Below are positions 1,900-7,421 of a DNA stretch of 7,421 bases, one piece after another. Position numbers and translations under genes: made by a program. The stretch's first letter is position 1. The number at the start of each line of letters is the position of its first letter. The notes under the pieces are model-generated. The model saw only the letters and a program-made list of their open reading frames with translations, ran no database searches and was not told the DNA's origin. This stretch comes from a plasmid: the sequence record NZ_CP069410.1; one strand, written 5' to 3'.

Positions 1900-2110
1900 A
1901 GTCTTTGTACAAGGAGAAAAGAGTGGAGATTTTTTAAGTGGGTTTCTTAAAAAATACGACTCGTACCTTGTATAAAGACTAGCTATTTTTTAGGGGAGGT
2001 AGAAGATATTACAGTTTCTATTTTATAAATAAATTTAGACACCTATCCTTATATAGTTGAATAGCCTATAAAAGATTATTTTGAATAAAAAGTAGATAGG
2101 ATGATTTCTA

Positions 2111-2977
2111 TTGTTTTTTCATAAAAAGGAACTTCAATACCATGCAAAACCAGACCGTCCGGATCCTTTATTTGCAAAGCAACTGCAAGAAGTTTTAGGG
2201 GGGCAATTTGGTGAAATCTCTGTAGCATTACAATATCTATTTCAAGGATGGAATGTACGAGGTAACGGCAAATATAAAGATTTACTTATGGATACAGGAG
2301 CCGAAGAATTAGCTCATATCGAAATGTTAGCTACAATGATCGCCCGACTTCTTGATCGAGCACCTGTTGGAGATTTAGAAAAAGCAGCTCAGGATCCTGT
2401 CATTGGAGCGATTCTTGGAGGCATGAATCCACAACATGCTATTGTTTCCGGACTTGGGGCCATGCCAGCAGATAGTGTAGGAAACAGATGGCATGCAGGT
2501 TATATTGCAGCAAGTGGTAATCTCCTGGCAGATTTTCGCGCCAATTTAAATGCAGAGTCACAAGGTCGCCTTCAAGTTGTACGTCTCTATGAATCAACTA
2601 GTGATCGTGGAGTGAAAGATATGCTATCTTGGTTGATTGCTCGGGATACGATGCATCAAAATCAATGGATTGCAGCAATTAAGGAGTTAGAGGAAAAAGA
2701 AAATGTAGTTGTTCCAAGTACGTTTCCTCGACACTTAGAGAAACGGGAAGTATCCCATGTCCTCTTTAATTTTTCTGAAGGAGAAAAGAGTGCTACTGGA
2801 CGCTGGGCAAGTGGTCCAAGCATGGATGGAGAAGGTGTATTTCAATATGTTCAATGCCCAGAAGGATTTGGAGGCAAACCAAAATTAAAACCAGCTCCCC
2901 CATATATTCATGATACACCACCTCAAGATTTAAAGAGAAATGATAACTTTACTCCACCTCCTCCACATTTAGCTTAA
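2111..2977 (+). CDS. Manganese (non-haem, dinuclear Mn) catalase.
   Basis: The 288-aa product reads MFFHKKELQYHAKPDRPDPLFAKQLQEVLGGQFGEISVALQYLFQGWNVRGNGKYKDLLMDTGAEELAHIEMLATMIARLLD...RLQVVRLYESTSDRGVKDMLSWLIARDTMHQNQW. It is collinear with Lactobacillus plantarum Mn catalase and Bacillus YdbD-type Mn catalases as I recall them. The start codon is TTG at 2111, with AGGA at 2098-2101 and a 9-nt spacer. The stop is TAA at 2975-2977. Confidence 0.9.
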   Translation: MFFHKKELQYHAKPDRPDPLFAKQLQEVLGGQFGEISVALQYLFQGWNVRGNGKYKDLLMDTGAEELAHIEMLATMIARLLDRAPVGDLEKAAQDPVIGAILGGMNPQHAIVSGLGAMPADSVGNRWHAGYIAASGNLLADFRANLNAESQGRLQVVRLYESTSDRGVKDMLSWLIARDTMHQNQWIAAIKELEEKENVVVPSTFPRHLEKREVSHVLFNFSEGEKSATGRWASGPSMDGEGVFQYVQCPEGFGGKPKLKPAPPYIHDTPPQDLKRNDNFTPPPPHLA

Positions 2978-2991
2978 AAAGAATAACATTT

Positions 2992-3140
2992 AACAATTTG
3001 AGCAAACTACTCAAGATGTATAAAAGCATCAAAACTAACTTCTAATTATGTCACAGAAAAAACTACTGGTCCCCGATGAGCCGGTAGTTTTTTCTGTTTT
3101 TTAAGGTGTATATGATATATATTTTTAGTTAACATAAAAC
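2992..3140. repeat. Junction element copy 1 (conserved box, spacer, terminator hairpin, conserved box).
   Basis: aacaaTTTGAGCAAACTACTCAAGA lies at 2992-3016. A 40-bp spacer follows. Then CAGAAAAAA + hairpin aactactgg/ccggtagtt (3061-3089, one G.U wobble) + TTTTTTCTGTTTTTT. After 24 bp comes TAGTTAACATAAAAC at 3126-3140, then catttttcggaacac. Confidence 0.6.
3056..3102. terminator. Bidirectional rho-independent terminator between the catalase gene (+) and the HTH gene (-).
   Basis: A 9-bp stem is flanked by an A-run at 3056-3062 and a T-run at 3088-3102. Confidence 0.7.
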
Positions 3141-3157
3141 CATTTTTCGGAACACTT

Positions 3158-3682
3158 TTAGTCTAATAACCCTTTTTCCTTAAACACTTTTCTAAGAGCT
3201 TCATTTACTAATTCAGATTTATAACTCTTAGGAACTCGATCAATGATACTTAACACATCCTGGTCAAAATAAAACCCTCTATACACTTGTTTTGAGCGTT
3301 CTTTTGGATGCTGCAGTAACAAATCAATTGCATCTACTTTGCTATCATTTGTACTAGCTTTTTCAAAGCTGTCATTAGTACTTTCACTTTCATTCAGATA
3401 GCTAACACTAGCTGCTATTTCGCTATTGGCTAGCTGTTGTTTTGCTGGCATTTTACTGTTTTTAGAGATAAGAGTACTAAAATCAACATCTAAAGGTTCT
3501 GATTCTTCTCCAACATAGCGATAAATACTTTCCTTACTGTCCCATTCATAGCCTAATTTCTTAATCTTTGATTGAATGGTACGAGTACTTACATCATACC
3601 GATCAGCTAATTCTTTAATGGTGATTTCTTTCATCATAATTCCATTTAACATCTTTTTTACCAGCATCTTACTAGCCCCCAT
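3158..3682 (-). CDS. MerR-like HTH DNA-binding protein (hypothetical regulator). The exact start is ambiguous.
   Basis: The ORF is 174 aa. The N-terminus ...MKEITIKELADRYDVSTRTIQSKIKKLGYEW fits the MerR/excisionase-type HTH pattern ELA..(x)VS.RTI.....LGY. The C-terminus VYRGFYFDQDVLSIIDRVPKSYKSELVNEALRKVFKEKGLL is a predicted beta-alpha-alpha DNA-binding-like fold. There is no clear SD before the first ATG. The internal Met codons 6, 11, 16 and 17 are alternative starts, and GGGGG precedes Met6. A plausible promoter lies upstream on the minus strand with a perfect TATAAT. Confidence 0.6.
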   Translation of the reverse strand: MGASKMLVKKMLNGIMMKEITIKELADRYDVSTRTIQSKIKKLGYEWDSKESIYRYVGEESEPLDVDFSTLISKNSKMPAKQQLANSEIAASVSYLNESESTNDSFEKASTNDSKVDAIDLLLQHPKERSKQVYRGFYFDQDVLSIIDRVPKSYKSELVNEALRKVFKEKGLLD

Positions 3683-3771
3683 TTTCGTTTTAAAATTATA
3701 GTACTAGTATTCAAATGCAAAGTAATATTTCCTGCTATTACTTTGCTACAAAATGAATAATTAAGATCAAC

Positions 3772-3885
3772 ATGAGCAAACTACTCGAGAAGTCTTTTAG
3801 TACTCCAATTACAACCTAATATTTATCAGTAGAAAAAGCCATTTTCCCCAAAGATGGCTTTTTCGCCTTTTAGTTAACATAAAAC
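3772..3885. repeat. Junction element copy 2.
   Basis: ATGAGCAAACTACTCGAGAAG lies at 3772-3792. A ~40-bp spacer follows. Then GTAGAAAAA + hairpin aaaaagccat/atggcttttt (3833-3863) + TTTTTCGCCTTT, then TAGTTAACATAAAAC at 3871-3885. The hairpin sequence is unrelated to copies 1 and 3. Confidence 0.6.
3833..3870 (+). terminator. Rho-independent terminator.
   Basis: A 10-bp A/T+GC stem and an 11-nt loop are followed by a T-rich tract. Confidence 0.55.
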
Positions 3886-4037
3886 GTATTATCAGAAGTA
3901 AATATTTACAGCAGGATTAAGCCTGCTGCTATTTTATATTGACTCTAGAAAAATAATAATGTCCCATATATGGAACATATACATAACATTGATTAGGACA
4001 GTGATTTAACTGTCAATTCCAAAGAGGAGAGTGAAAC

Positions 4038-4577
4038 ATGTCTAAGACATGTATTATTGGAAATGGTTGTGCAGGGAAGACTACTCTAGGGAAAAAGTTA
4101 AGCCAAGATCTTTCACTTCCATTCTTTGAAATGGATGAAAAACTCAAATTTTTAAAAACAACTCCTTTTCCTACCAGGCAACAAATCAGACATTTTTCAA
4201 GAGAACTAAACAAATTATTAGATAAAGATAAATGGGTAATAGAAGGTTGGGGGTATAAAGAAACTTACGAAGAAAGATTTAAAAAAGCAGATATTATTAT
4301 CTTTCTAGATGTACCTTTCCAAGTTTGTTTAGAACGATGCCATAAAAGATTAGGTTCAACCAACTTAGAAATTCTAAAACGAGGCGTAACAAAGTTAAAC
4401 ATATTTGATAAACATGTACGTCCATTGCTATTAAAGCTAATCCAGAAATATAAAAATGAACCTAAAAAAATAATCCTAGAGATTGATCAGGATTTCAAAT
4501 ATGAGGATATATTGAGACAAATTAACATGAATACAGTGCCTATTAATAAGAAATCTGAATATCAAACAATAATTTGA
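4038..4577 (+). CDS. Small P-loop NTPase / nucleotide-kinase-fold protein, FlaR topology-modulation-protein-like (AAA_33-like).
   Basis: The ORF is 179 aa. The Walker A motif is IIGNGCAGKTTLGKKL. The block WVIEGWGYKETYEERFKKADIIIFLDVPFQVCLERCHKR is collinear with the WIIDGNY...ADTIVFLD.P...CL.R..KR signature of FlaR-like ~170-aa kinases. The RBS is AGAGGAGAG with a 7-nt spacer. The TGA stop lies inside junction box copy 3. Confidence 0.7.
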   Translation: MSKTCIIGNGCAGKTTLGKKLSQDLSLPFFEMDEKLKFLKTTPFPTRQQIRHFSRELNKLLDKDKWVIEGWGYKETYEERFKKADIIIFLDVPFQVCLERCHKRLGSTNLEILKRGVTKLNIFDKHVRPLLLKLIQKYKNEPKKIILEIDQDFKYEDILRQINMNTVPINKKSEYQTII

Positions 4578-4708
4578 GCAAACTACTCAAGAAACTGATA
4601 AGGTTTCAACCCTTTGGATAAATGTAGTAGAAAAACTCCCTTAACGCTCTAAGGGAGTTTTTCTGTTTTTGAACTGTATACTCTATACAAAGGTAGTTGA
4701 CATAATGT
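4571..4708. repeat. Junction element copy 3.
   Basis: aaTTTGAGCAAACTACTCAAGA lies at 4571-4592. A ~40-bp spacer follows. Then GTAGTAGAAAAA + hairpin aactccctta-acgctc-taagggagtt (4634-4659, perfect 10 bp, extendable to 13) + TTTTTCTGTTTTT. After 24 bp comes TAGTTGACATAATGT at 4694-4708, then ctctttccggaacac. The last tract matches tttttcggaacac after copy 1. Confidence 0.6.
4629..4670 (+). terminator. Rho-independent terminator of the kinase gene.
   Basis: A perfect 10-13-bp stem and 6-nt loop are followed by TTTTTCTGTTTTT. Confidence 0.7.
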
Positions 4709-4729
4709 CTCTTTCCGGAACACAACCCA

Positions 4730-4774
4730 AAAAAGAACCCTTGTCGCAGAACGGTTCCGCCGAGGGTTCTTTTT
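4730..4774. terminator. 12-bp perfect stem with a 21-nt loop (aaaaagaaccct ... agggttcttttt). Bidirectional terminator-like or structured RNA element.
   Basis: 4730-4741 is the exact reverse complement of 4763-4774. A-runs and T-runs are built into the arms. The stem is flanked by ctttccgga (4711-4719) and ttttccgga (4771-4779). The loop tgtcgcagaacggttccgccg is GC-rich. Confidence 0.4.
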
Positions 4775-5009
4775 CCGGAGTATGCAACTTTTTATACATC
4801 CTTGATATGACGGAGTTCCCCTTATAGGTGGTCGGAGAAATGATGAATAAAAAGTGCACCTTTTATTCATATGCAAGCCCTTATAAAAAAAGCATGTATC
4901 GGAAAAAGTATGATACAATAACCCCTGGTCTATTTTTTACAAATTTCAACGTAGCAAAAAGAGCAACCTTTCGTCCACTGCAGAGGTTGTTTCTTTATTT
5001 TCTTTAAGA

Positions 5010-5037
5010 CACTAATATCTTATTTGAGGGTGTTATA
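5010..5037 (+). promoter_or_regulatory. Candidate extended -10 promoter for the 5077 gene.
   Basis: gagggTGtTATAATag shows TGnTATAAT at ~5026-5037. A weak -35 (ACTAAT) lies 17 nt upstream. The 5044 ATG named in the ORF track would sit inside or just after the -10. The true start is therefore more likely 5077. Confidence 0.4.
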
Positions 5038-5076
5038 ATAGTTATGATTCTGAATAAATTGGAGGTTATAACTGTT

Positions 5077-5643
5077 ATGTACATGGAATTCTATGAAAAA
5101 GTAGATGGATTAGCAAGAGCTATTAGAGTCACAACTTCAACTGCAAAGAAATATTATTTACTTTTTGAAGAGCATGGTTATAACTTTAAACGTAATCAGC
5201 AAGGACAACTCTTGTTTTCACAAGATGATATAAATTTATTTAAAGAATTAATGATTTTAAAAAATGAAAAAGGTATGACAGTTCCAAAGGCTGTAAAGGA
5301 GATTGTAAGTGGAAAAGTTATAACTGACATAACAGATATAACAGACATAACTGTTACAACAGAAGATATAACGGTTATAACTAGCAAAGTTACAACTGTT
5401 ATGACTGAGATAGAAGAGTTAAAAAAGTTAGTAAAAGATCAAAATGAAATTATAGAGAAACAACAAGAAAATTTTAAAAAGCAATTTTTAAAACAAGAAG
5501 CCTACATAAAAGACAATCTAGAACAAAGAGATAAAACGTTAGTTACAACATTAAGAGAAATGCAAGATTCACAGAAAGAAATAGCTGCTACTTTATCCAA
5601 AGAAAAAGATAAGAAAAAATGGTGGCAAATATGGCGAAGTTAA
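5077..5643 (+). CDS. MerR-like HTH + coiled-coil protein with an internal (I/V)TD tandem repeat. A paralogue-like partner of the 3158-3682 product.
   Basis: In this frame GGAGG lies at 5061-5065 and the ATG at 5077 gives MYMEFYEKVDGLARAIRVTTSTAKKYYLLFEEHGYNF. The pattern LA..I.VTTSTAKKY....GY matches the 3158-3682 protein (LADRYDVSTRTIQSKIKKLGYEW). A tandem repeat ITDITDITDITVTTEDITVITSKVTTV follows. The tail ELKKLVKDQNEIIEKQQENFKKQFLKQEAYIKDNLEQRDKTL is a coiled coil. The ORF track extends the N-terminus to 5044, which overlaps the promoter. Confidence 0.6.
   Translation: MYMEFYEKVDGLARAIRVTTSTAKKYYLLFEEHGYNFKRNQQGQLLFSQDDINLFKELMILKNEKGMTVPKAVKEIVSGKVITDITDITDITVTTEDITVITSKVTTVMTEIEELKKLVKDQNEIIEKQQENFKKQFLKQEAYIKDNLEQRDKTLVTTLREMQDSQKEIAATLSKEKDKKKWWQIWRS
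5317..5410 (+). repeat. About ten degenerate 9-bp tandem repeats ATAAC(A/T)G(A/T)(C/T) inside the CDS, carrying GTTATAAC palindromes.
   Basis: The tract reads gttataactgac ataacagat ataacagac ataactgtt acaacagaa gatataacg gttataact agcaaagtt acaactgtt. The perfect 8-bp palindrome GTTATAAC occurs at 5317-5324 and 5374-5381 here. It also occurs at 5065-5072 (between the SD and the start codon) and at 5700-5707 (just past the gene). Confidence 0.6.
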
Positions 5644-5672
5644 ACCACTCAATCAATTTGAGTGGTTTTTTG
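5644..5672 (+). terminator. Rho-independent terminator immediately after the stop codon.
   Basis: The stem accactcaa-tcaat-ttgagtggt (9 bp) is followed by TTTTTT. Confidence 0.65.
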
Positions 5673-5712
5673 TATATTGCAAAAATGCAACGCATAACAG
5701 TTATAACTACTC

Positions 5713-5758
5713 GGCCGTCTTAAGACGGCTTTTTTAGCCTTCAGGCTATATTTTTTTC
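5713..5758 (+). terminator. Tandem back-up terminators.
   Basis: gccgtcttaagacggc is a perfect 16-nt palindrome followed by TTTTTT. agcct-tca-ggct followed by atattttttt comes next. Confidence 0.55.
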
Positions 5759-5876
5759 AACGAAAAAAATACGAAAAGACTCTTGCAATTCTATTAACGA
5801 ATTGCTATATAAATAGAGAGTGAGAGTAAAATAACCATTAAGGTAGTAATAAACCCTTTTATACCAAGGCTTTATA

Positions 5877-5940
5877 CCGGATTTCGTAGTTACCGAATTA
5901 GATAACTATAGTTACCGAATTAGATAACTACGAAATCATA
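5877..5940. repeat. Two perfect tandem 22-bp direct repeats (tagttaccgaattagataacta x2) bracketed by a 10-bp inverted repeat. Iteron-like candidate origin or centromere-like site.
   Basis: Unit 1 is 5887-5908 and unit 2 is 5909-5930, and they are identical. Each unit is internally pseudo-palindromic (tagtta...taacta). The flanks gatttcgtag (5880-5889) and ctacgaaatc (5928-5937) are inverted repeats that overlap the unit ends. The element sits 15-70 bp downstream of the repL stop. Confidence 0.6.
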
Positions 5941-5968
5941 AAAAAGTAACCCTTAGAAAAGGGTTACT
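5939..5968 (-). terminator. Terminator of repL. It overlaps the last 5 codons.
   Basis: The stem agtaaccctt-agaa-aagggttact (10 bp, 5945-5968) precedes a T-run on the minus strand, which is the A-run at 5939-5944 on the plus strand. Confidence 0.55.
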
Positions 5969-6576
5969 GGAAAATTTTTAAATAAAGGCTTAGCATTAGC
6001 AAAAAGTGCTTTTAAAGTTGTTTCTATATTGTCTCGTTCTCCACTATAAATAATATTCGGATTAATAAACAAGGCATATGTACGGGCATTATTGCCTTCT
6101 GTTTTCTGACCTTGAGCTTTAACAATTACGCCTTTATCAACTAGCTGATTTACAATTCTACTAACCTTAGGCGCACTAGTTTTTAATCTTTCAGCAATAG
6201 CCTTCTGAGTCAATGGAACTGCACTTCTAGAGTGAATATTATCTACAATGCAGTTACTTTTAAATTGCATATATCTTTGAATACGAAGTAAGAAGAGCAT
6301 CTGTTCATCAGTAAAATAATCATTGTCTAAAGCATAATCCCAATTATCCTGAATAAATTGAGCAAATTTCACTTTTGATTTTGGAGAACGTTTAGTTCCA
6401 ACGTAAATCTCCTTTCCTCCAGTCGCTTTACTTAATACTTCTATAGCCTTGTTAACATCATCCTGATCAACACCATGATAGTCTTCTTTTAATTTTTCTT
6501 TTTCATTTTCTAAATCTCTTAACCTAGCATTTTGTTCGGCATCATCAAAATTAATTTTGAATTTTCTTTTTTTCAA
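5953..6576 (-). CDS. repL: RepL-family (firmicute plasmid replication protein, pSN2-type) replication protein.
   Basis: The ORF is 207 aa. The core FLLRIQRYMQFKSNCIVDNIHSRSAVPLTQKAIAERLKTSAPKVSRIVNQLVDKGVIVKAQG...ALFINPNIIYSGERD is collinear with pSN2 RepL (...KIVNYILDNVHLSNNTMIATTREIAKATGTSLQTVITTLKILEEGNIIKRKTG...LMLNPELLMRGDD) as I recall it. This includes a winged-HTH block and the NP...G tail. The start codon is TTG. The SD is GGAGAGG with a 9-nt spacer. Confidence 0.6.
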   Translation of the reverse strand: MKKRKFKINFDDAEQNARLRDLENEKEKLKEDYHGVDQDDVNKAIEVLSKATGGKEIYVGTKRSPKSKVKFAQFIQDNWDYALDNDYFTDEQMLFLLRIQRYMQFKSNCIVDNIHSRSAVPLTQKAIAERLKTSAPKVSRIVNQLVDKGVIVKAQGQKTEGNNARTYALFINPNIIYSGERDNIETTLKALFANAKPLFKNFPVTLF

Positions 6577-6580
6577 TTGT

Positions 6581-6608
6581 TAATTCCTCTCCTCTAGCAG
6601 GAATTAAC
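6581..6608 (-). promoter_or_regulatory. 9-bp inverted repeat ttaattcct / aggaattaa enclosing the repL Shine-Dalgarno sequence.
   Basis: On the mRNA, UUAAUUCCU-GCUAGAGGAG-AGGAAUUAA ends 3 nt before the TTG start. Most of the SD lies in the loop and 3' arm of this stem. It could be a translational control element or an operator. Confidence 0.4.
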
Positions 6609-6630
6609 CGTCCTGTGTTAAAATAAAATT

Positions 6631-6734
6631 AATTAAATAGGTTGCACAACAACAAGAGGTTAATCCCTCGAAATGTTTTGTTAAAAGTCCTCTGGCCCGC
6701 TAAAACTAGAGGACTTTCTTATTTTTAATTTTAA
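6631..6734 (+). ncRNA. Candidate countertranscript (antisense RNA) to the repL leader.
   Basis: On the plus strand TGtTAAAAT (6616-6624) is an extended -10. About 60 nt downstream there is a strong plus-strand intrinsic terminator. Its stem aaagtcctct/agaggacttt (6684-6693 / 6708-6717) has a 14-nt loop and is followed by cttatttttaatttt. No plus-strand ORF lies within ~1 kb upstream. The element sits between a CopG-like gene and rep, antisense to the rep leader, as RNAII does in pMV158-type plasmids. The -35 is weak. Confidence 0.3.
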
Positions 6735-6759
6735 ATCATATAGATCTTTATTTCATTGA

Positions 6760-6966
6760 TTATTTATTCTTTACACTTCTTGATTCTACAGGTATTTCTT
6801 TCTCATATAACCTTCTTAAGGCCAAACGTATAACATCATTTTGAGTAATAGGTTTAAAACTAAAATCATTAAAATCATTAAATGAGTTAATTAACTCCTG
6901 AACCATTACTAATTCGTCTTCGTCAAGCCTTATGGAAGTAGTTTTTAACGTCTTTTTTTCTGTCAT
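6760..6966 (-). CDS. Ribbon-helix-helix (CopG/Arc/MetJ-like) DNA-binding protein. Probable copy-control repressor or transcriptional repressor upstream of repL.
   Basis: The true start is ATG at 6966 (MTEKKTLKTTSIRLDEDELVMVQELINSFNDF...ITQNDVIRLALRRLYEKE, 68 aa). GGAGG precedes it with a 7-nt spacer. The beta-strand + two helices pattern (TTSIRLDEDEL / VIRLALRRL) is the RHH fold. The ORF track's 88-aa version adds 20 residues translated across the promoter and RBS. Confidence 0.7.
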   Translation of the reverse strand: MTEKKTLKTTSIRLDEDELVMVQELINSFNDFNDFSFKPITQNDVIRLALRRLYEKEIPVESRSVKNK

Positions 6967-6997
6967 GTCAATACCTCCAACTTCTTCTATATACAAC

Positions 6998-7026
6998 ATT
7001 ATACAATTCAATTTAATCAATCGCAA
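6998..7026 (-). promoter_or_regulatory. Promoter of the RHH-repL unit.
   Basis: On the minus strand TTGCGA is followed by a 17-nt spacer and tgTATAAT (-10 = plus 6998-7003). The spacer contains five short att(g) direct repeats. A 7-bp inverted repeat taatcta/tagatta lies upstream at ~7035-7050 and could be an operator. Confidence 0.5.
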
Positions 7027-7060
7027 TACAATGTAATCTATTAGATTATAAAAGAAGATG

Positions 7061-7421
7061 TTATCCTAACTCTATACCAAACAACCCAAAGAACCACTTG
7101 AACAAGAAGAACATAGGCACCATAAAGACGGCCGCCCCAGCTCCATACTTCACCCAATCTAACCAGCCATTAAACACCACGCCCAACTTAGCGTTCGATA
7201 TCATAGTCTTGCTGTTTTTCTCGATTTCGCTGAGTTCTGATTTCGCCTTCTCGCTCAACATGTCGAACTTGCTCCCCAGGTTGTTGTTGATCTTCTCGAG
7301 TTCGTCCTTGATCATTTGATTGTTTGTTTGGAACTCGTTGTTCAGAAACTCCTGATTCTGTTTCATCTCGCTGTGCAATACCTTGATGGCCGTCTTCATC
7401 TCGGCCAAAGTTTCGTTCGTA
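7061..7421 (-). CDS. Coiled-coil protein with a C-terminal transmembrane anchor, XhlA-like. Probably 5'-truncated by the window edge.
   Basis: The product reads ...AEMKTAIKVLHSEMKQNQEFLNNEFQTNNQMIKDELEKINNNLGSKFDMLSEKAKSELSEIEKNSKTMISNAKLGVVFNGWLDWVKYGAGAAVFMVPMFFLFKWFFGLFGIELG. The tail NGWLDWVKYGAGAAV resembles the NRWIEVIRWVAGLAVGA junction of PBSX XhlA. The frame is open to 7421 and the ORF track's start (TTG at 7408) has no RBS. GC content matches the mob module rather than the cargo. Confidence 0.45.
   Translation of the reverse strand, partial: TNETLAEMKTAIKVLHSEMKQNQEFLNNEFQTNNQMIKDELEKINNNLGSKFDMLSEKAKSELSEIEKNSKTMISNAKLGVVFNGWLDWVKYGAGAAVFMVPMFFLFKWFFGLFGIELG

Follow-up and report, generated by a model that had tools for sequence, protein, structure and literature searches.

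Dif-like sites probably bound single-gene cassettes on Priestia megaterium plasmids and may be shuffled by host Xer recombinases

The stretch of DNA analysed here, hereafter the window, is a small plasmid of Priestia (Bacillus) megaterium, mobilisable and 7421 bp in size (sequence record NZ_CP069410.1). The plasmid pPmC-129-15 (NZ_CP069412.1) is 96.5% identical to it, and parts of it are also present in 250 other Priestia or Bacillus plasmids. Its genes for a manganese catalase, a protein with an HTH_11 domain and a P-loop kinase (Table 1) are accompanied by three co-oriented copies of an intergenic junction element, E1 (~2981-3154), E2 (3755-3899) and E3 (4557-4722). The comparisons described below suggest that each copy consists of a terminator-bearing 5' module and a dif-like 3' module, and that host Xer recombinases probably shuffle the single-gene cassettes lying between such sites from plasmid to plasmid.

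Table 1. Features of the window: the junction elements with the putative modules between them, followed by the genes. Scores in bits are those of the position weight matrix of the dif-like site.
Feature	Position	Strand	Remarks
E1 GAATA, -35-like motif	2981-2985	+	14 nt upstream of the 10-mer GAGCAAACTA
E1 left box TTGAGCAAACTACTCAAGA	2998-3016	+	core GAGCAAACTA at 3000-3009
E1 small hairpin 2, GATGT-ATAAAA-GCATC	3015-3030	+	by folding; stem covaries across the family
E1 intrinsic terminator	3053-3102	+	18-bp stem, A-run before, T-run after; -29.1 kcal/mol, z -5.8
E1 palindrome TGTATA-TGA-TATATA	3107-3121		adjoins XerD arm; family consensus TGTATAnnnTATACA, high information content
E1 dif-like Xer site TGTTCCGAAAA-ATGGTT-TTATGTTAACT (XerC arm-centre-XerD arm)	3127-3154	-	30.7 bits
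Putative module A (centre of site 1 to centre of site 2)	3141-3885		HTH_11-domain gene and 5' half of E2
E2 GAATA, -35-like motif	3755-3759	+	
E2 left box ATGAGCAAACTACTCGAGA	3772-3790	+	2 mismatches
E2 intrinsic terminator	3832-3870	+	14-bp stem, short T-run; -16.7 kcal/mol, z -3.8
E2 dif-like Xer site ACTTCTGATAA-TACGTT-TTATGTTAACT	3872-3899	-	25.1 bits
Putative module B (centre of site 2 to centre of site 3)	3886-4708		P-loop kinase gene and 5' half of E3
E3 GAATA, -35-like motif	4557-4561	+	within the last codons of the kinase gene
E3 left box TTGAGCAAACTACTCAAGA	4574-4592	+	contains the kinase stop codon TGA (4575-4577)
E3 hairpin 2, GAAACT-GATAA-GGTTTC	4591-4607	+	by folding; family covariation
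E3 intrinsic terminator	4628-4670	+	16-bp stem and T-run; -27.1 kcal/mol, z -5.0
E3 palindrome TGTATA-CTC-TATACA	4675-4689		between T-run and right box
E3 dif-like Xer site TGTTCCGGAAA-GAGACA-TTATGTCAACT	4695-4722	-	35.0 bits; borders a widely conserved backbone block
MobC and relaxase genes	cut by window ends	-	
Mn catalase gene	2111-2977	+	
HTH_11-domain protein gene	3158-3682	-	
P-loop kinase gene	4038-4577	+	
DUF3967/MerR-like protein gene	5044-5643	+	
Winged-helix protein gene	5953-6576	-	weak RepL match

A preliminary description of this DNA had reported three copies with near-identical flanking boxes, and both boxes are indeed present three times, on the plus strand only. The left box TTGAGCAAACTACTCAAGA is intact in E1 and E3 and has two mismatches in E2, with no occurrence expected in 200 shuffles; the right box TAGTTRACATAA is found at 3126-3137, 3871-3882 and 4694-4705, with 0.15 occurrences expected by chance. 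Each copy also has a hairpin with a T-run. The palindrome TGTATA-N3-TATACA (15 bp), possibly a site for an accessory protein, is seen in E1 and E3, whereas E2 lacks it, as do the counterparts of E2 in L129 and L128 (L numbers denote the loci compared). The copies are therefore real, but their extents had been underestimated: the true unit is longer on both sides, reaching from (T)GAATA to 16 nt past TAGTTAACATAA (..TTnnCGGAAca), and measures about 175-190 bp versus 114-149 bp in the earlier description. An 'echo' of the box, caatttgag, which had been pointed out at 5644-5672, gave no family match and is best read as chance.

The comparison of the boxes and of the whole element with other plasmids, proposed earlier as a check, revealed a large family. 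With E3 as the query, blastn against PLSDB yielded at least 559 places in 233 plasmid records, 225 of them from Priestia, with up to nine places per plasmid; almost no annotated feature lies beneath any copy, and none of the 233 records annotates the elements themselves. Copies in Priestia plasmids and chromosomes were located with a profile search that covered fetched plasmids and box-holding genome contigs. The left box has seven exact matches in IMG/VR, and in a genome-wide scan (17-mer, 596 Gb) the non-Priestia ones among the matches listed are mostly due to chance. The element had no blastn match in the phage collection, and a permissive Rfam scan of the whole window gave no family for it, with a sub-threshold Phe-leader match on the terminator. 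Short contigs with typical Priestia elements and a cassette for a gamma-type small acid-soluble spore protein (SASP) were seen in an assembly labelled Sphingomonas sp. PsM26 (L011, L017, L020, L032, L038), which most likely reflects contamination by a Priestia plasmid.

The family alignment comprises 79 distinct full copies. Its consensus is (A)TGAATAA-N12-TTGAGCAAACTACTCAAGA-small hairpin-~25 variable nt-AG AAAAACTnC..loop..GnAGTTTTT CTG TTTTT in the 5' part and, after the T-run, AAGC TGTATA nnn TATACA-nnnT-TAGTTAACATAAT-g nnTnTTatCGGAAca in the 3' part. The two halves also occur separately, half-elements being common. On a contig of Bacillus sp. RC (L046:6230-6490), two 5' modules with box, hairpin and terminator face each other between convergent genes, and the profile matches there include no dif-like site; hence, the terminator half can be used alone.

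Read on the minus strand, the right box TAGTTAACATAA and the next 16 nt form a 28-bp sequence, nnTTCCnnnAA-N6-TTATGTTAACT, with the consensus tgTTCCgatAA-aAgtcA-TTATGTTAACT in 77 copies. The dif site of B. subtilis is ACTTCCTAGAA-TATATA-TTATGTAAACT (Kono et al. 2011, PMC3025954). The layout of 11, 6 and 11 bp (XerC arm, centre, XerD arm) is ungapped in all 77 copies; the XerD arm has at most one mismatch to the B. subtilis arm in 58 of them, the XerC arm keeps T3, T4, C5, C6, A10 and A11, and the 6-bp centre is variable. This asymmetry of the arms is the pattern given for dif sites in a review of Xer recombination, where the right (RipX/XerD) half-site is conserved and the left (CodV/XerC) one is looser (PMC5357621). 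In one copy (L006), which reads ACTTCCTAGAA-AATTCA-TTATGTTAACT, the XerC arm is identical to that of B. subtilis. With the family matrix, the B. subtilis dif reaches 26.4 bits, compared with the family median of 29.3 (tail probability 1.3e-9 per position by exact calculation), and the E. coli dif scores 14.7 bits; a plasmid dif (pdif) site of Acinetobacter, in what we take to be its sequence, scores 18.8 bits. Nothing in the window besides the three sites exceeds 6 bits. Both arms thus resemble those of dif, with the B. subtilis site, not the host's own, as the comparator. The earlier suggestion of cassettes bounded by recombination sites is supported in this form, that is, through a linear 28-bp dif-like site overlapping the right box only.

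The 3' module was also considered as a promoter. Readings by eye for sigma-A, -B, -E, -G and -K gave misfitting spacings, and 85 copies of the module are followed within 260 nt by just 24 distinct co-oriented open reading frames (ORFs) at widely scattered distances. We dropped the promoter reading of this module because the dif reading explains the conserved block. The preliminary description had also offered a terminator plus a promoter-like block, which is partly right for the 5' half; TTAACA/TTGACA, however, is the middle of the XerD arm and not a -35 box.

The variable hairpin is a canonical, covarying intrinsic (Rho-independent) terminator situated about 30 nt outside the Xer site: it has a stem-loop containing G+C, a T-run and compensatory changes. 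The central hairpins had been said to share no sequence, whereas across the 79 copies the A-run, the T-run and the outer CT..AG (AAAAACT../..AGTTTTT) are kept and only the inner 5-8 bp vary, in a correlated manner. Paired cells make up 91.3% of the big stem, compared with 80.4% in shuffles and 54-71% in slid controls, and there are 115 double changes versus 41.8 in shuffles, with none of 500 shuffles reaching 115. The structure-preserving divergence noticed in the three copies extends to the family. Since G-U cells outnumber A-C cells about twofold, the plus strand is the folded one, and since the A-run precedes the stem, the terminator is probably bidirectional. A second, small covarying hairpin (GAnnC..GnnTC) begins at the terminal GA of the left box, with at least four consecutive pairs in 59 of 76 copies; its stem variants include GATAC/GTATC, GAAACT/GGTTTC, GACG/CGTC and GATGC/GCATC. 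The mini-hairpin that had been proposed within the 20-nt box itself did not hold up: the changes TTGAG to TTGAA and CTCAA to CCCAA arise independently and disrupt pairs (17 and 11 A-C cells), and compensation is almost absent (2 of 74 at one pair).

In 12 small plasmids we found 64 sites of at least 14 bits (0.35 expected from shuffles), 3-8 per plasmid, and in each plasmid all of them lie on one strand; under random orientation the chance of such uniformity is 2^-52. The same is seen on the 99.7-kb plasmid pBM600 of strain QM B1551 (NC_014031.1, ~63-88 kb), where at least 16 sites on one strand extend over about 25 kb and separate single genes of either direction (DUF1259, DUF421, DUF1796, AraC, PadR, YqcI, ABM, YjcZ and several hypotheticals), with IS3 and IS256 elements interspersed. 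Of the 26 loci with several sites, four have sites in both orientations, and each of these four belongs to a large plasmid or an unclassified contig. Both of the corresponding earlier observations, that the elements keep their orientation whatever the gene direction and that they delimit single-gene units, are thus borne out well beyond the window, the same boxes bounding many different genes on the small plasmids and on pBM600.

The units between the sites measure 0.2-2.5 kb and mostly hold single genes. The element strand is independent of the direction of the cargo genes, and yet a given type of cargo always faces one way with respect to the sites: the kinase and SPW genes invariably have the same polarity as the sites, and YjcZ, Spo0E and the HTH-domain gene invariably have the opposite one. 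For the HTH_11-domain gene this polarity is shared by L128, L129, L133, L134 and L003. The SASP cassette in L020 is laid out as site, own promoter, gene, box and terminator. The element strand also coincides with that of RepL in all seven plasmids compared and is opposite to that of Mob in nine of ten. The co-orientation with RepL is explained by RepL being itself a module: it lies inside a unit of about 1 kb between two sites (L134:4565-5582, L127:7402-8425, L002:8317-9166, L128:9659-163, L003:9808-564). Such a RepL module, if excised, would potentially be a self-replicating minicircle.

If the sites are points of exchange, the homology between plasmids should end at them. Within the elements, which constitute 8% of the sequence, lie 34% of the ends of inter-plasmid homology. 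Among pairs of sites from different loci, both flanks are shared in 21, only the left one in 35 and only the right one in 56. The linkage map shows that the upstream DNA is linked through the N14 spacer and then breaks off sharply at the left box; the spacer region and the terminator are half-linked; a second break falls between the terminator and the XerC arm, and the XerC arm and the centre travel with the downstream DNA. For the fine mapping we took 24 pairs that share the downstream DNA but not the terminator. Of these pairs, 96% agree in the XerC arm (baseline 8%) and 50% in the centre (baseline 4%), and 8% still agree in the 3-5 nt that lie past the XerD arm (baseline 4%). Thus, homology stops within the centre or the XerD arm, the place of Xer strand exchange.

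The box-flanked content also differs between related plasmids, as would be expected of cassettes. At window site 3, a single site leads to the conserved backbone block (..AGTTGACATAA-TGTCTC-TTTCCGGAACA..), while the same place in L129 has two sites, ..AGTTAACATAA-TGTAAT-TTCTAGGAATA.. and ..AGTTTACATAA-TACCTC-TTTCCGGAACA..., enclosing an additional cassette of some 300 bp that carries an apparent short hydrophobic ORF (by eye). The two arrangements are an empty/occupied pair of the form that site-specific exchange would be expected to leave, and a script found three further such configurations. The window shares the kinase module with L129 and L130, where the homology, which begins at the XerD arm, runs from TTAGTTAACATAA.. 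through the whole of the left box; the segment from the left box to the T-run in the window, however, is unrelated to that in L129 and L130. We read the segment from the left box to the palindrome as having been swapped between dispersed copies by homologous recombination or gene conversion, with the conserved blocks serving as short homologies. Homologous recombination certainly contributes to the mosaicism, and it is also the main rival explanation of the junctions at the dif-like sites.

Taken together, these observations make it probable that the elements join a terminator module to a dif-like module through which the host Xer recombinases shuffle single-gene cassettes. In the 5' module, (T)GAATA, N14, the box, the small hairpin and a spacer of about 25 nt would be followed by a terminator insulating the neighbouring modules; in the 3' module, the palindrome would be followed by the dif-like site, to which CodV (XerC) and RipX (XerD) would bind, occasionally recombining pairs of sites. 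Recombination between two direct sites on one molecule would excise the intervening DNA as a circle, and recombination of this circle, or of another plasmid, with a resident site would re-insert it in a fixed polarity. Repeated rounds would produce arrays of single-gene modules with all sites direct and the polarity of each module fixed whatever the direction of its gene; in the window, the modules so defined would be those of the HTH gene (~3141-3885) and of the kinase gene (~3886-4708).

A search of related plasmids for a recombinase had been proposed as a check, and none besides the Mob relaxases is encoded in the window and the 11 related small plasmids. The enzyme would therefore be supplied in trans, most plausibly as the host CodV and RipX, XerC/D homologues being near-universal. 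In B. subtilis, CodV and RipX are the recombinases of dif, and an FtsK-like activator is not known to be needed (PMC5357621). On pBM600 (L143:1561-2493), a divergent Xer-like tyrosine recombinase is encoded beside the rep gene, its best match being XerA with 70.8 bits (cut-off 220). In a single structural alignment, it has Thr aligned with the first catalytic Arg of XerA, which hints that this is not a standard enzyme; it is a possible alternative as the trans-acting factor. About 3 kb from its gene, at L143 5528-5555, there is a more palindromic dif-like site, AATACATATAA-AATACA-TTATGTTAATT.

Several points weigh against this interpretation. A plasmid with several direct active sites should be unstable, hence Xer activity must be low or regulated. 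The three sites in the window differ in the 6-bp centre, which would limit full exchange by XerC and XerD among them, and the conserved 150-bp flank is on the XerD side, unlike the accessory sequences of cer and psi. The resemblance to dif was established with the site of B. subtilis rather than with the chromosomal dif of P. megaterium, and we infer from sequence that CodV and RipX bind or cut the family sites. The crossovers at the central region are seen as old events, which homologous recombination in the conserved flank could mimic; indeed, similar junctions could arise by homologous recombination or copy-choice, for which the conservation of the 45 bp comprising the T-run, the palindrome and the XerD arm would suffice. 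Neither flank is linked to the short variable positions that separate the terminator or T-run from the XerD arm. Finally, there is a second, more diffuse breakpoint at the left box, for which Xer cannot account: of the pairs that agree in their upstream DNA but differ in the spacer region, 48% have the -35-like motif in common, 60% N14, 65% the left arm of the box and 44% its right arm (baseline 40%).

The strongest of the alternatives holds that the elements are plain terminators or regulatory repeats, that the mosaicism is RecA-dependent or arises by copy-choice, and that the dif-like site is a multimer-resolution site like cer or a hitch-hiking relic, so that Xer moves no cassettes. Rolling-circle plasmids do recombine at short direct repeats, breakpoints are observed at every conserved block (the box, the A-run, and the T-run with the palindrome), and the swap of the linker within the otherwise identical kinase module has this character as well. 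The elements of large plasmids and of the chromosome, moreover, are mostly situated between convergent genes, as terminators are. This alternative, however, leaves unexplained why the best-conserved part of hundreds of copies should be a near-perfect 28-bp look-alike of dif with the 11-6-11 layout and arm-specific conservation, and why the downstream homology stops in the centre or XerD arm and not elsewhere in the 45 bp. For multimer resolution one site would do, while 3-8 per small plasmid, or at least 16 on pBM600, are seen. We consider this explanation unlikely, though deserving of serious attention.

Much less credible is a non-autonomous transposable repeat, either a miniature inverted-repeat transposable element (MITE) or bcr-like repeat, as the preliminary description had offered, or a palindrome-associated element of the IS200/IS605 type, mobile as single-stranded DNA, whose strand bias would come from insertion into the strand displaced during rolling-circle replication. 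The high copy number, the intergenic location and the strict strand uniformity in small plasmids would fit such an element. Its consensus ends, (A)TGAATAA.. and ..TTCCGGAACA, are however not inverted repeats, there are no target duplications, and we saw no transposase accompanied by such ends; instead of having diverged as whole units, the copies are mosaics whose sub-modules are exchangeable and also occur apart. On the 99.7-kb pBM600, too, the sites keep to one strand for 25 kb, and the co-orientation with RepL is explained by the RepL module.

Equally improbable in our view is a signal acting in single-stranded DNA (ssDNA), that is, a single-strand origin (sso) or a leading-region ssDNA promoter, on the strand displaced in replication or transferred in mobilisation. 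It would account for the strand relations to RepL and Mob, for the position of the window elements on the side of oriT away from the mob genes, and for the covarying hairpins. Yet 3-8 copies per plasmid far exceed the need for an sso, and the elements also fill pMLY91_6 (86 kb, typed as non-mobilizable), pBM600 (both plasmids are probably not of the rolling-circle type) and chromosomes. No sso-like Rfam family was found, a separate plasmid RNA/ssDNA motif is present at 1648-1703, and the orientation is accounted for by the logic of site-specific insertion.

The least probable reading, which we practically discard, is the attC-like, structure-specific site with conserved ends, a folded core and a dedicated tyrosine or serine recombinase that had been suggested by analogy: the variable covarying stem between conserved ends and the cassette-like arrays are reminiscent of it, but the left and right boxes are not inverted repeats and do not pair, the RYYYAAC/GTTRRRY cores are absent from the consensus, the stem with its A- and T-runs is a canonical terminator, the 5' and 3' halves occur separately, the genes of the cassettes lie in either direction, no integrase is encoded on the small plasmids, and the tyrosine recombinase of pBM600 is divergent, with Thr aligned with the first catalytic Arg. 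The site itself is linear and dif-like, with XerC and XerD arms, and extends beyond the earlier coordinates; the hairpin is not part of it.

The role of the left box is a separate question. In the family alignment, its invariant positions are GA.CAAACTA...A.GA, and in 50 of 74 copies CAAACTA is preceded by GNATR at a distance of 16-18 nt. Just 14 of the 74 have a co-oriented ORF of 50 or more amino acids before them, and GNATR is no rarer in the copies lacking such an ORF (42 of 60) than in those that have it (8 of 14); therefore the box is not simply a motif of 3' untranslated regions or a stop-codon context, as had been concluded from the three copies in the window. The sigma-F consensus of B. 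subtilis is GYATA-N14-GGnnAnAHTR, with GAATA as a documented variant and an A/T-rich spacer expected, and sigma-G promoters closely resemble sigma-F ones. GAATA-N14-GAGCAAACTA departs from this consensus once per element, and its spacer is A/T-rich; the gamma-type SASP gene of the related plasmid L130 has GGATA-N14-GGATATATTA, a genuine forespore promoter. A forespore-type (sigma-F/G) promoter formed by GAATA and the left box is the best available reading, which we put forward tentatively, on the motif match. It would yield a hairpin-capped transcript of about 75-90 nt that begins where hairpin 2 has its base and stops at the terminator. Against it, GAGCAAACTA has A at the second G of the sigma-F -10 element, the other specified positions matching, and it is hard to see what purpose a promoter would serve that reads directly into a terminator. 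Alternatively, the box could bind an accessory protein, or it could be a second core-type recombination site with 5-bp arms and an invariant 7-bp centre, as its left arm travels with the upstream DNA and its right arm with the downstream DNA; the upstream boundary is diffuse, and we did not adopt this reading. The box as a remnant of a small peptide or coding sequence was rejected: the frames are not conserved, and the third-base-like variation (GAR CAA ACT ACY) goes without a consistent ORF.

As for the rest of the window, the plasmid has no RepL, and no tRNA or tmRNA was found in the window. The G+C content is 43-52% in the mob region (1-1950 and 7061-7421) and 27-35% in the remainder (1950-7060), and this sharp discontinuity suggests a chimeric origin of the backbone. 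The Rfam family RF01691 ('Bacillus-plasmid RNA') matches at 1648-1703 on the minus strand (54.9 bits, E 1.7e-10), within a GC-rich stretch upstream of mobC (1440-1710) that contains C-run/G-run hairpins and is probably the oriT/sso zone of the backbone. A hairpin-rich block after site 3 (4723-4880), which stands beside the dif-like site in many plasmids, includes a long hairpin AAAAAGAACCCT...AGGGTTCTTTTT and the sequence CTTGATAT, presumably similar to the nick core of the pC194 type; this block could be an sso, a double-strand origin (dso) or an oriT-like signal of the backbone. Between the DUF3967/MerR-like gene and the winged-helix gene, TAGTTACCGAATTAGATAACTA is present in two exact 22-bp tandem copies (5887-5930), which jointly form a 29-nt inverted repeat, have TAGTTA in common with the XerD arm and are candidate iterons or an operator. 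Inside the DUF3967 gene (5316-5382), 9-nt periodic repeats (ATAACnGAn) encode a short repetitive I-T-D-like stretch.

The closest known counterparts are the dif modules of Acinetobacter, a feature of plasmids with Rep_3 and OrfX in which C/D and D/C sites alternate; in the open-access literature searched, multi-site Xer modules are described just for Acinetobacter plasmids, and we found there no paper on dif-like arrays in Priestia or Bacillus plasmids, though a prior mention is possible. The two systems have in common many 28-bp plasmid sites (11+6+11) whose XerD arm is well conserved (TTATGTTAAnT in both) while the XerC arm is looser and the spacer varies, small modules of mostly one or two genes, some of them empty, in varied combinations in related plasmids, and the absence of a module-borne recombinase, host XerC/D being invoked instead. 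Modules bounded by pdif-type sites and shuffled among plasmids are thus seen in Priestia too. Unlike Acinetobacter, however, the Priestia host belongs to Bacillota, all sites within a small plasmid or array are direct (modules of the 'CD' type) rather than inverse, the backbones carry RepL or a winged helix-turn-helix protein with MOBP/V/Q rather than Rep_3/OrfX, the site is usually joined to an XerD-side flank of about 150 bp (palindrome, terminator and promoter-like box), and even the replication gene RepL is a module. In view of the differences in orientation and backbone, the Priestia system works like dif modules without being a member of that family.

Other systems share fewer of these properties. 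Pneumococcal BOX and B. cereus bcr are likewise short, abundant, species-restricted, modular intergenic repeats with stable hairpins; they are not known to carry a dif-type site or to bound exchangeable modules, and no sequence similarity emerged from Rfam or the phage collection. The cer site of ColE1 and the psi site of pSC101 also combine a plasmid-borne XerC/D core with a conserved flank of about 150-180 bp, and cer contains the promoter for the small RNA Rcd. In cer and psi, though, the accessory sequences lie beside the XerC arm, and each plasmid resolves its dimers through a single site, whereas in Priestia the flank is on the XerD side with its promoter-like box directed towards the core, and many sites are present per replicon.

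Integrative mobile elements exploiting Xer (IMEX) resemble the Priestia modules in being circular DNA without an integrase that depends on host Xer and a dif-type site, is flanked by two direct sites and can form tandem arrays (PMC5357621). They are phages or large islands inserted into the chromosomal dif; in Priestia the targets are plasmid-borne, the units are small, dozens are arrayed, and, RepL modules excepted, they have no replicative or phage functions. With integron cassettes the modules share arrays of mostly single-gene units, sites in one orientation and the expected excision as circles with re-insertion. They differ in having no IntI, attI or Pc (window and 11 small plasmids), a linear dif-like core rather than a folded attC, and genes that point either way and have their own promoters, for example that of the SASP-gamma cassette in L020. 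Because direct sites allow excision and re-insertion, the logic of the Priestia modules is nearer to that of tandem IMEX arrays or integron cassettes. One could go further and imagine an integrase-less, integron-like cassette system occupying plasmids and parts of the chromosome of P. megaterium, in which the host CodV and RipX would excise hundreds of single-gene modules, replication modules among them, as circles and re-insert them at direct dif-like sites, with the flank as an accessory or control region timing recombination, e.g. to sporulation; this extension is speculative and on the present evidence rather doubtful.

Should the proposed mechanism be true, host dimer resolvases would double as a general cassette-shuffling engine outside Acinetobacter. 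It would raise the questions of how many direct active sites can stably coexist on a replicon, what the flank contributes, and whether replication genes travel as Xer modules. For P. megaterium, a Gram-positive bacterium of soil and industry which carries up to a dozen plasmids and serves as an expression host, the sites would predict points of plasmid rearrangement or insert loss. The alternating orientation of sites in Acinetobacter makes the movement of modules hard to explain, whereas with the direct sites of Priestia simple excision and integration would suffice; the Priestia arrays would then represent the simplest natural version of dif modules and a tractable Gram-positive model of their movement.

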